Shown here one piece after another: positions 62,401-62,744 of a stretch of DNA of 64,000 nt; the stretch's first letter is position 1; every line of letters begins with the position of its first letter. This DNA is from Rickettsia typhi. Lineage in GTDB: Bacteria; Pseudomonadota; Alphaproteobacteria; Rickettsiales; UBA1997. The translations under genes and the position numbers were made by a program. The notes below the pieces were generated by a model, which was given only the letters and a program-made list of their open reading frames with translations, was not told where the DNA came from and ran no database searches. Location: the NCBI GenBank assembly GCA_945862075.1, contig CAMAWV010000001.1, positions 2,721 through 66,720 of the forward strand. Reading direction: 5' to 3'.

Positions 62401-62744
62401 GTAGAATAATAAGGTCAGATGATGCGGTAGGAAGAGAATATAAAGGCATGGGCGCAGAAACCATTCCTTCAGCAACTACACCAGAAAGCGCATCAGAAGA
62501 TGATGATATAGGGACACAACTCCGTAAAAATTATGATAGGGAAAAACAAGGAAAAGGACGTTTCGATAGCAGCGGAAGCGATTCTTCTTTATCAGATTCA
62601 GAGCCACCGTTACCGCCAGAGCTACCACCAGAGCCACCGTTACCGCCAGAGCTACCGCCAGAGCTACAGCCAGAGCTACCGTCACCGCCAGAAGAACCGC
62701 CACCGCCAATGCCACCACCGCCAGAGGCAGAGCGACAAGAATAA
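56493..62744 (+). CDS. virB6: Giant VirB6/TrbL-like type IV secretion lipoprotein/membrane protein (2083 aa) with a polyproline C-terminus
   Basis: The ATG lies 1 nt after the upstream stop. Lipobox FFMLCLISC. The N-domain is ~1100 aa and very Cys-rich. The polytopic core is about aa 1117-1409 (nt ~59841-60720), with ISTILMVMFYGISYLMGVSKLNQAE and GPVFIAFFLFEKTKDYFNKWIKS. A K/E-rich segment follows, then glycine-zipper segments (nt ~61590-62375), then the tail EPPLPPELPPEPPLPPELPPELQPELPSPPEEPPPPMPPPPEAERQE. Confidence 0.75.
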   Translation: MNFFKNNIKLLKKILAIFFMLCLISCKDQGCTEGDDFGEFTIQNLQFPPYAGGIKKRLDYNKTICNDYNKELLKLINVDLCNDGTMINCSSSTRGNDQNCTLNLGTTCNNDLVNLYTLQNKCYSTYAKKQTSDGGKSYVFATHDDENNPDFYLFPDADISVKIRGEITINRSSPNTAITIQKNSPSELLKVNQNEKIDVFLKNDVSNIYFDFYKAIPTVKGICDTDFLDLHIPNNQQDFYTMQENVNNDYHNATNGIQNKLKTIIVYNIPYVGETTFIAPDINTLESDNGKWIVNKNNEELKIDNASSTKKRKLGTGFVVATTELNGFGLQTMSSDEYLLARQDIVDYYKTSSPCSNFTYRGSYINNVVGSSLVGTRSVSSGVTFGANSILKAGSTASFLVLPTGSPPPSCTFNPMLSVTQDISGFVEFGFACLQNTSPCTQSSLPSTITVSIVSSEGDFEVFPSLSPAIEKQINIPGGKIFVKKGSTLLIHTTPSSSTTSTTIANLKTNGLYVKTTPRPAIYCSKQKFRIQKNTMCINSNPEFCIIDPQFCTSVQKGSTTATHKCECASNKFFQTQSWSPAFTKDSSSPAYKINLDQLKNDYCSDQTKLDECKACLIELQNSPGLSNTNNIQKTLYDTTKSENVCFDLEEIRNRISDATKIIDDIQIEPKKNDLDWIMEKILNTKIKILPYFSDNSYGVLPKPSLSNLKLPIPTTVTAHADVCNQSRQLQTTIKSKFNGKIELYIADNDEVTNTNYIPSTTEKFRITTNNQFTLRDGAGLKISLKNITNKSTGDTTRYDYNNSCDYLIGNSASSSPSCQDLYTLKNGNLMRNSIQYSINPLNVCIKNDSNLSYNPFAGAYQEIFCYKKTSSEEVKNMGLKFELDTTGDTKNIFVNNCYKSSGTITENCQITCPSPSSGSSTCNMCNAMKIVNPSFDSPTPNNNIGINSSDYYTCIGKEEISKAISGSYNITVAIKNEKSIINYIELILTPILDLLYSSKKDCLIPVDEKSLPPTPLRSCDPQSSNCQYNITPKYCEKNSGLCNGKSYSNNQEKNPSSSTAYCPMDIEITRNADNIITNSEIKNIHSACEWQCRPVKTGEIERIYEIILNNNSFSNAVRISTILMVMFYGISYLMGVSKLNQAEMINRMFKIGVVGLFLDPQSGWMWFNNLIIQPFNDGADYLSFLFASVLEPNDLTDLTTALEKGDYSNRSLLFSTSNDIVNLFLQDETWKKIGALFFFNLFGPLYAAGIFYVIYMYVFVVANVLLVYVVAKLLMGVLFLVGPVFIAFFLFEKTKDYFNKWIKSILSYAFQQFFVIFTLNFFNMLIYYLIKLVLGFKVCWDEVWTIDLGLITFTLLEFWTPYNNPATSQIGRDPSLYSSAPSFSGVLSLYIIVHIMKNFMPQIAQLANIMVDGVASATNAAGNISGAMKSLFQLAKKSFFNSTLGKALVSGAKSVVYKGLDKTLGIGPEAEKRKEKIMKHRKDMLGDRDQISSNTNKAFEKFKEENAVKIANGEISKESLKNKKQDILQEQAKKMQLERGLKMMNISKSQYNKTQGIEKMQLEKIAMKKAEREGFSSDKYLNQKGITLKELKAHSSLAGIAFTGFKEGSHRGGTLFKNLQEKNDNMSNRDYKVSQLQFNRNLQKLTPEDQRQARASSNAANMRSNTIFEASQGVQDRVGRFATQFATQNIANPAKTVVGNLLGGGVGMVGGAVGMVGGIFGIVLGGTRGYASGRWGLYNSSVALLQNSGKHVARSTANFAVGGIGGAFTGAVGGAVGAGAVGGAVGVIGAVPMVFVGARSGVNIAQRFNEDLQNLRNPFTGVINNIEGEVIQNQNSINTGLRNAADAADSVRNSFDTDTVANIRVGALYGAAVGGVVGGFVGGVGGLLASNRTVRGIAYETLISSVGDQPQRFGGGLFGAAYSVAAAPPVAGALKGGAATVGGIAGLVSGTGMLAGARSYYQQTDDALSRIIRSDDAVGREYKGMGAETIPSATTPESASEDDDIGTQLRKNYDREKQGKGRFDSSGSDSSLSDSEPPLPPELPPEPPLPPELPPELQPELPSPPEEPPPPMPPPPEAERQE
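61611..61853 (+). repeat. Short GC-rich in-frame duplications encoding glycine-zipper-like sequence
   Basis: 21 bp x2, gttggcatggtcggtggY (61611, 61632; VGMVGGx). 24-bp ggtgctgttggtggtgctgttggt x2 separated by gct (61803-61853; GAVGGAVG). Confidence 0.8.
62601..62727 (+). repeat. GC-rich 30-bp tandem repeat and degenerate derivatives encoding the polyproline tail
   Basis: gagccaccgttaccgccagagctaccRcca x2 (62601-62660). Then gagctacagcca, gagctaccgtca, ccgcca, gaagaaccgccaccgcca and atgccaccaccgcca. Confidence 0.88.

Follow-up and report, generated by a model that had tools for sequence, protein, structure and literature searches.

Within the 64-kb stretch of DNA analysed here (the window), a gene for a giant VirB6 protein of the extended, RvhB6-like kind, which belongs to a type IV secretion system (T4SS) of Rickettsiales type, ends in a dense run of proline and glutamate codons at positions 62520-62744. 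The gene is an open reading frame (ORF) of 2083 amino acids (aa) at 56493..62744 on the forward strand (+), and the tail is its 3' end. A sequence-only reading of the window had taken this tail for an array of short proline motifs directed at eukaryotic SH3-domain and profilin proteins. In our analysis it is probably the disordered, acidic end of a giant VirB6 protein, generated by replication slippage, in which proline richness is incidental, and not a dedicated set of SH3 or profilin ligands. The tract is derived from repeats, differs in length between alleles, is confined to a shallow lineage and carries no motif signal beyond that of its composition. Judged by this composition it would be intrinsically disordered or polyproline-II-like and strongly negative, and we infer that selection keeps its acidity and its disorder and not its proline motifs.

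The segment 62520-62744 lies in frame with the ORF and encodes its last 74 residues and the stop codon, with the translation LRKNYDREKQGKGRFDSSGSDSSLSDSEPPLPPELPPEPPLPPELPPELQPELPSPPEEPPPPMPPPPEAERQE. Coordinates, frame, translation, tandem repeat and proline density all agree with the unusual repeat-encoded, proline-rich acidic module described in the sequence-only reading, the translation exactly so. The last 50 aa hold 24 prolines and 12 aspartates plus glutamates and have a net charge of -11. Across all 42 long ORFs the average proline content is 3.4%, and the next-richest 50-aa segment contains 11 prolines; the binomial tail probability for such a density is 3e-22 per 50-aa segment, or about 6e-18 after multiplication by 19,509 residues. 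The translation includes an acidic serine-rich segment, DSSGSDSSLSDSE (62565..62603, +), a proline-rich core of 40 aa with 23 prolines, PPLPPELPPE PPLPPELPPE LQPELPSPPE EPPPPMPPPP (62604..62723, +), and a terminal acidic hexapeptide, EAERQE, with the stop codon (62724..62744, +).

At the DNA level the core coincides with an in-frame tandem repeat array (62599..62702, +), identified with Tandem Repeats Finder (TRF), in which a 12-nucleotide (nt) unit, CCGCCAGAGCTA, is organized into higher-order units of 30 and 42 nt. The 30-bp unit is present in 2.2 copies with 97% identity (62599-62664) and is nested in a 12-bp periodicity of 5.4 copies (62611-62681) and a 42-bp unit of two copies (62611-62702). 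All three repeat periods (12, 30 and 42 nt) are multiples of 3. The GC content reaches 65% at 62599-62730; the gene as a whole has 34% and the window 32%. The earlier description of a GC-rich repeat in an otherwise AT-rich gene is accurate as to the repeat and needs qualification as to the gene, which is not uniformly AT-rich outside the tail: glycine-rich blocks at 61500-62400 reach 45-50% GC. Codon use in the tail is also atypical, with CCG used for 10 of its 24 proline codons compared with 7 of 74 in the rest of the gene, and GAG for 8 of its 12 glutamate codons compared with 12 of 82. This pattern fits the recent amplification of a short unit, since CCGCCAGAGCTA encodes PPEL. An origin of the proline tract as an inverted copy of the glycine- and serine-rich repeats, suggested by the reverse complement GGSSGGNGG, was considered and rejected; the best antisense matches (39843-39867) extend over only 21-25 nt with an E value of 0.14, and therefore represent compositional complementarity with no demonstrable homology. 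Two ORFs that overlap the tail, at 62476-62718 (-) and at 62533-62778 (+, in the +2 frame), were likewise set aside as by-products of the repeat.

The proline tail was recovered as four alleles, in the closest relatives only. The tail of P0160 is identical to that of the window and the tail of P0002/L002 differs by two amino acid changes with the same repeat number; outside indel-bearing stretches these strains are 97-99% identical to the window in nucleotide sequence. The allele of L013/P0146 is more diverged (76% identity over the alignment to the last ~146 aa) and retains the same synteny with dprA. Its tail reads SEEPPQPEEPQPPPPPPAEEPPPPPPPPPPEAE up to the stop codon, with EEPPQPEEPQPPPPPPAEEPPPPPPPPPPEAE as its last residues, and keeps the acidic serine-rich segment as DSSRSDSSLSGSE; this segment is absent in more distant orthologs. 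Compared with the window allele, L013 lacks 39 nt in frame and has gained 3 nt by insertion, and it shows an ATG>CCG change (Met>Pro) and a CGA>TGA change that shortens the terminal hexapeptide to EAE, so that the proline core is polymorphic in length and the tails of these two close alleles differ by 12 aa. The prolines of L013 come from a (CCGCCA)n microsatellite that produces runs of six and ten (P6 and P10). Repeat number, which the sequence-only reading had singled out for comparison among strains, does vary: the deletion and insertion in L013 alter it, and P0160 and P0002/L002 share the window length.

Beyond these relatives the proline tract is absent in nine distinct orthologs with 42-68% identity (P0003/L005, P0004, P0005, P0007/L012, P0008, P0009/L011, L006/P0012, L008 and L010; P0006, which nearly duplicates P0005 and has the same tail, is not counted apart). 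Absence from close orthologs, which had been proposed as a sign that the tail is dispensable, is the case for every ortholog at or below 68% identity and is not the case for the closest relatives. Conservation among the orthologs stops about 100 aa before the C-terminus, and the tails beyond this point are unrelated to one another, although 10 of 11 are net acidic with an aspartate or glutamate end. As acidity and the acidic end are the only features found in nearly all tails, we take the proline richness to be a compositional outcome. In at least two of these orthologs other tandem repeats occupy this site: P0003/L005 has (DPVDRTPS)n there and L008 has (VDPAAG)n. A more distant relative, P0016, carries (PYIGGTxPTEEGS)n at its C-terminus. 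In the 64-kb window, TRF repeats scoring at least 60 are confined to the C-terminal extensions of three VirB6 paralogs, and neither 1-37017 nor the genes that separate the paralogs contain any. Together, the other repeats at this site and the confinement of repeats to VirB6 extensions make the tail one case of a general hypervariability. Among 136 giant members of the family the median number of prolines in the last 50 aa is 2, and 15 or more are reached only by the window lineage. When Joint Genome Institute (JGI) metagenome contigs were searched for further repeat alleles by exact match to CGTTTCGATAGCAGCGGAAGCG, a conserved flanking sequence, there were no matches; the alleles described here came from protein searches. 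On the short contig of L013, positions 1-370, upstream of the truncated VirB6 gene, are AT-rich and contain GACTCCGCGCAGTAT motifs that recur in either orientation. This stretch may represent a small element, mobile or repetitive, or a join made in assembly.

The content of the tail in host-type ligand motifs was evaluated with ELM-style regular expressions, with [RK]xxPxxP or PxxPx[RK] as SH3 cores, and with shuffles of the same 47 residues as the reference. The tail contains no class I and no class II SH3 core. Its 40-aa proline core lacks a basic anchor, the sole lysine or arginine in the last 50 aa being R2081. Uninterrupted runs of about six or more prolines would be long enough for profilin. 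In the window allele five prolines never stand together, the longest runs being two PPPP split by a methionine; the related L013 allele has its P6 and P10 runs. What the scan did return is PPLP twice and one EVH1-like LPSPP, the latter with a shuffle expectation of 0.85, and no FPPPP-type EVH1 ligand was present in the tail. The dense PxxP emphasized in the sequence-only reading exists as a count, with 15 bare PxxP matches, but composition-matched shuffles give a mean of 11.2; the density is due to composition, and no motif class lies significantly above the shuffles. The proposed SH3 and profilin motif array accordingly finds no support in the scan of the window tail.

The picture differs in part for the wider family. 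Among 135 giant members, proline makes up 2.8% of the last 400 aa compared with 3.8% of the first 1000 aa, and SH3-type matches are not enriched. Runs of PPPP or longer occur in 6 of the 135, and these rare runs are specific to the C-terminal extensions. P0052 (L014 6001-12846; GCA_038131245.1, JAYPPA010000006.1), from a metagenome-assembled genome (MAG) of 36% GC with a VirB2 gene nearby, carries near its C-end three tandem copies of APPPVPPRPG (class II SH3-like), an FPPPPPP (EVH1-type) and a PPPLP. We take APPPVPPRPG to be close to the Sos-type ligand PPPVPPR, and from its sequence P0052 appears a much better candidate than the window tail for a eukaryote-directed proline array. P0101 has PPSY and PPPY (WW-type) at aa 1833-1894, P0121 ends in TPPPPPAPPPLPGQGS (TPPPPPAPPPLP), and P0129 has a PPPP...PPPPPP tract at aa 2289-2310. 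The proline motifs near the C-ends of P0101, P0121 and P0129 are apparently sporadic and of independent origin. The motifs of P0052 and P0101 keep the idea of host ligands alive for the family and lend it weak support for the window tail.

Assignment of the 2083-aa protein to the VirB6 family is based on a Pfam match to TrbL (PF04610) at aa 1123-1327 with an E value of 1.4e-20 and a score of 74.4 bits (cut-off 25.9). The structures of R388 TrwI/VirB6 (7o3v/8rt9) match weakly (E 0.003), and the NCBIfam VirB6 equivalog is matched below threshold (19.9 bits compared with 206), with no match for the paralogs. Pfam and NCBIfam found no domain in the protein besides TrbL/VirB6, and in particular no actin-regulatory or eukaryote-like domain. 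A HMMER search returned 986 representative clusters at E<1e-10, and the best 150 are for the most part giants near 2000 aa in length that share its layout, in which large extensions flank the TrbL domain (in the window protein, an N-terminal one of about 1090 aa and a C-terminal one of about 680 aa). A TrbL core with large hydrophilic extensions defines the extended VirB6-like (RvhB6) class of Rickettsiales (PMC7648143, PMC8035066, PMC2653234). The sequence-only reading had correctly recognized a membrane protein, and its identity as a VirB6 had escaped notice there.

The protein begins with a predicted lipoprotein-type signal peptide (aa 1-26; 56493..56570, +), with a hydrophobic segment at aa 7-28 and a lipobox L-I-S-C whose Cys26 is invariant in a 9-sequence alignment. 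The lipobox was assigned by eye against the rule [LVI][ASTVI][GAS]C. An N-terminal cysteine-rich domain of ~1090 aa follows (aa 27-1116; 56571..59840, +), which is probably non-cytoplasmic, with 41 cysteines compared with none in the C-terminal 680 aa. This lipoprotein-anchored domain has no Pfam match and is conserved across the family, where the median number of cysteines is 32 in the first 1000 aa and 0 in the last 500 aa. The polytopic TrbL/VirB6 membrane domain (aa 1117-1403; 59841..60701, +), delimited by Pfam, hydropathy and loop charges, is nearly invariant in orthologs. Manual parsing of the Kyte-Doolittle segments in this domain gives about seven hydrophobic helices, where at least five were taken to define a polytopic core.

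The C-terminal extension has three parts. Part a (aa 1404-1695; 60702..61577, +) is by composition lysine- and arginine-rich and helical, with a net charge of +21. Part b (aa 1696-1958; 61578..62366, +) has 60 glycines in 263 aa and, by hydropathy, four Gly-zipper-like hydrophobic blocks with GxxxG runs. It contains TRF repeats at 61602-61868 and 62087-62153 and varies in length between strains, with a 144-nt indel relative to L002 at about 61810-61966. Blocks of this kind (GGVGMVGGAVGMVGG and VGGAVGAGAVGGAVGVIGA among others) are conserved in orthologs and paralogs, including 55000-55300 of the upstream paralog, and could be candidate extra membrane-inserting hairpins. Part c (aa 1959-2083; 62367..62741, +) is the polar, hypervariable tail region with a net charge of -15, and a charge-hydropathy calculation places it on the disordered side. 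An AlphaFold2 (AF2) model of aa 1100-2083 from the 9-sequence alignment had a mean predicted local distance difference test (pLDDT) score of 36 and a predicted template modelling (pTM) score of 0.27 and is uninformative on topology and Gly-zipper packing; pLDDT values of 70-87 were confined to about aa 1470-1590, and the tail has no secondary structure in this low-confidence model.

Vergunst et al. reportedly described in 2005 a C-terminal signal for transport by the VirB/D4 system that is positively charged; the window tail does not resemble such a signal, for which a net positive charge over roughly the last 20-50 residues would be expected, its last 50 aa being net -11. In Agrobacterium tumefaciens VirB6, according to PMC7648143, the N-terminus is periplasmic and the C-terminus cytoplasmic. 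This topology and the +21 segment, by the positive-inside rule, suggest that the extension starts in the bacterial cytoplasm, and a cytoplasmic location is the default prediction for the tail. The Gly-zipper blocks could shift the tail elsewhere, as could threading through the secretion channel, which has been proposed for extended VirB6 proteins. The sequence-only reading had made exposure to the host the crux of its proposal, and we agree with it on this point. In Anaplasma VirB6-3 and VirB6-4, trypsin can reach the C-terminal repeats while the bacteria are intact (PMC7648143), the 3' repeats of the genes vary between strains (PMC3556328), and cleavage of the extended VirB6 C-terminal extension with release into the host cell has been proposed (PMC7648143, PMC3556328). 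Exposure or release therefore has precedent in this family.

The closest known counterparts are the extended VirB6 proteins of Rickettsiales, among them Anaplasma phagocytophilum VirB6-3 and VirB6-4, which share the TrbL core and the large hydrophilic extensions (PMC7648143, PMC3556328, PMC8035066). Like the window proteins, VirB6-3 and VirB6-4 belong to sets of several paralogs with two adjacent members, carry strain-variable 3' tandem repeats, and have extensions whose exposure or release is debated. They differ in that the repeats of Anaplasma virB6-4 extend over kilobases whereas the repeat tract of the window covers ~100 nt and is proline- and glutamate-rich, in the ~1100-aa, lipoprotein-type, cysteine-rich N-terminal extension of the window protein, and in gene context and origin, as virB3-virB4 are not adjacent in the window and its lineage is an uncultured freshwater MAG lineage. 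TraG of the F plasmid and SXT, the extended VirB6 of F-type T4SSs, resembles the window protein in a VirB6-like membrane domain followed by a large C-terminal hydrophilic domain, which, according to PMC7648143, is thought to be active beyond the donor inner membrane and to function with TraS in entry exclusion. We detected no sequence similarity between TraG and the window C-terminal extension; the TraG domain is not a low-complexity repeat tail, and TraG belongs to a conjugation system as opposed to an rvh-type effector system. The VirB6 of A. tumefaciens and TrwI of R388 share the homologous TrbL core but are proteins of ~300-340 aa without N- or C-terminal extensions or a repeat tail.

The actin-hijacking factors invoked by the sequence-only reading (ActA, RickA and Sca2) share with the window tail a dense proline content in a repeat-encoded segment, the protein belonging to a bacterial group whose members typically live with eukaryotic cells. 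The window tail, however, is strongly acidic and has no FPPPP repeats, basic-anchored PxxP, P5 run, WH2, Arp2/3-binding or formin-like module. The periplasm-spanning proline-rich regions of TonB and VirB10 are similar in their glutamate- and proline-rich composition, which is prone to the polyproline-II (PPII) conformation, but they connect the anchor in the membrane with a C-terminal domain that has a function of its own, whereas the window tract is terminal. Variable repeat tails are thus already known in the extended VirB6 family, and what is new here is an environmental, proline- and glutamate-rich example.

The repeats, the codon use and the allele comparison show that the last 40-50 aa are a young, lineage-specific tract of low complexity, produced by in-frame replication slippage of CCGCCAGAGCTA (PPEL) and CCGCCA (PP), and that its length still changes between close strains. 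Several points weigh against the view that the proline richness is incidental. The proline and glutamate richness persists in at least three diverged alleles with flanks ~76% identical in amino acid sequence, and both indels are in frame; selection favouring a tail rich in proline would fit this, and not neutral slippage alone. The P6 and P10 runs of L013 are in principle long enough for profilin-type binding. The eukaryote-like proline motifs near the C-ends of P0052 and P0101 indicate that proline-rich tails in this family may sometimes be functional ligands. An exposed end that faces the host would also become hypervariable under diversifying selection, and the Anaplasma VirB6-3 and VirB6-4 repeats are accessible to trypsin on intact bacteria (PMC7648143). 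The proposal of the sequence-only reading is that the tail is a eukaryote-directed array of SH3, WW, EVH1 or profilin motifs, shown to or released into the host, with the extension threaded via or alongside the T4SS channel or cleaved. We consider this unlikely. The proposal can draw on the protrusion or release suggested for extended VirB6 C-termini and the trypsin accessibility in Anaplasma (PMC7648143, PMC3556328), on the two PPLP (WW class II-like) and one LPSPP (EVH1-like) in the tail, on the long runs in L013, on the persistence of composition in three alleles with in-frame indels throughout, on the triple APPPVPPRPG, FPPPPPP and PPPLP of P0052 and the PPSY and PPPY of P0101 at the same position, and on a eukaryote-like leucine-rich repeat (LRR) protein encoded at 10025-10666 of the same window. 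It is opposed by the lack of any class I or II SH3 core, of a basic anchor in the proline core and, in the window allele, of a run of five prolines, by the net charge of -11, by motif counts within the range of shuffles, by the absence of the proline tail in all orthologs at or below 68% identity, and by the rarity of PPPP or longer in the family (6 of 135). In addition, the +21, cysteine-free start of the extension points to the cytoplasm, as in A. tumefaciens VirB6 (PMC7648143), and Pfam finds only TrbL and no actin-related or eukaryote-like domain with the tail. A broader version holds that the C-ends of giant VirB6 proteins in environmental Rickettsiales are a nursery in which slippage creates eukaryote-type proline ligands and the T4SS presents them (PPLP and polyproline here, PPPVPPRP and FPPPP in P0052, PPxY in P0101), the window tail being an early or diverged member, with WW-, EVH1- or profilin-type proteins of the host as its would-be partners once the extension is threaded or cleaved; this ranks lower still and we regard it as doubtful.

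Functions inside the bacterium or at the nucleic acid level are more difficult to sustain. The tail might dock on or regulate another part of the T4SS, for instance one of the ATPases VirB4, VirD4 and VirB11, or its acidity might make it autoinhibitory or a mimic of substrates on the cytoplasmic side of the machine. Lack of cysteine and the positive-inside rule suggest that the extension is cytoplasmic, net acidity and the acidic terminus are the only features common to 10 of 11 ortholog tails, and duplicated Rickettsiales T4SS components have been hypothesized to autoregulate effector secretion (PMC11077975). Yet the last ~100 aa contain no conserved motif across orthologs, the charge of -11 is unlike that of the VirB/D4 transport signal, and no partner is in evidence, so that this role seems improbable. 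The sequence-only reading had offered a rigid PPII spacer, comparable to the proline-rich regions of TonB and VirB10, as its fallback, and about 50% proline with interspersed glutamate and leucine should indeed favour an extended PPII conformation; however, only EAERQE and the stop codon lie beyond the tract, leaving no distal domain to space, and the 12-aa difference between close alleles and the loss of the tract in orthologs also argue against a spacer, which we judge very improbable. Least probable of all the readings is a role in RNA or translation, as a structured RNA, a terminator or an EF-P-dependent stall tuning the gene itself or dprA, which begins 86 nt downstream. Runs of PPP and PPPP are classic sites of EF-P-dependent ribosome stalling, and the efp gene is present at 35567-36136. 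The GC-rich repeat was nevertheless rejected as an RNA structure, terminator or promoter, as its RNA fold is no better than that of shuffles (z = 0.30), the interval from the stop codon to dprA holds no terminator-like site, and orthologs with the same synteny lack the tract. As a separate observation, EF-P-dependent stalling would be expected at the tail's own PPP and PPPP runs and at P10 in L013. The slippage-derived acidic tail of a giant VirB6 remains the favoured explanation.

The tail gene belongs to a group of three giant VirB6-like paralogs (1668, 1802 and 2083 aa) within 26 kb. Directly upstream is a paralog of 1802 aa (51083..56491, +; Pfam TrbL, E 5.5e-13) with its own repeat-rich C-terminal extension (repeats at 55159-55853). 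Unlike the tail protein, this paralog has a conserved C-end, DKAKLLLALQEYAKTIN or DKVNLKLALEKYAKQLQKS, in L002, L004, L006, L007, L011 and L012, which suggests a functional C-terminal helix. The pair formed by 51083-56491 and 56493-62744 is syntenic in six related loci. The third paralog, of 1668 aa (37018..42024, +), has C-terminal tandem repeats rich in glycine, serine, alanine and proline (39830-40646), and its TrbL match (E 3.5e-5; 24.1 bits) is slightly below the cut-off of 25.9. A 125-aa ORF directly after it (42031-42408) has no Pfam or NCBIfam match. In addition to these two further VirB6 paralogs, the T4SS gene company of the tail gene in the window includes a VirB2/TrbC pilin gene (35046..35408, -; Pfam PF04956, E 2.8e-13). 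No virB3, virB4, virB8-11 or virD4 was found among the 38 long ORFs scanned with Pfam, a set that left out nine long ORFs at 29910-46750. Further hallmarks of rvh systems are duplicated VirB4, VirB8 and VirB9 and the lack of VirB5 (PMC11077975).

Four orthologous loci belong to MAGs of Rickettsiales bacteria from lake metagenomes, and the family member P0129 is likewise from Rickettsiales, so that the window most likely comes from a freshwater MAG lineage of uncultured Rickettsiales. Among its other genes are those for DAHP synthase (4288-5718), aspartokinase (10731-11969), a class IV aminotransferase (12615-13499), OMP decarboxylase (23957-24658), a full-length RelA/SpoT (46875-49010) and GlmS (49051-50886). 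This biosynthetic and regulatory capacity exceeds that of classical obligate intracellular Rickettsiales, and the lifestyle may or may not be host-dependent. The LRR protein at 10025-10666 (-), of 213 aa, matches the F-box-associated Pfam family LRR_At5g56370 with 27.1 bits at a cut-off of 27 and may be a eukaryote-like effector candidate.

If the tail is a drifting low-complexity end, it provides an environmental example of the repeat-prone, strain-variable VirB6 extensions of Rickettsiales and would serve as a handy strain marker. If such tails do reach the host, they would bear on the question, dating from the work on Anaplasma, of whether extended VirB6 C-termini act outside the bacterium, for which the eukaryote-like proline motifs of P0052 and P0101 provide concrete, testable peptides. 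Should slippage at these C-ends indeed create host ligands that the T4SS presents, the giant VirB6 proteins of environmental Rickettsiales would amount to an effector built into the secretion apparatus.

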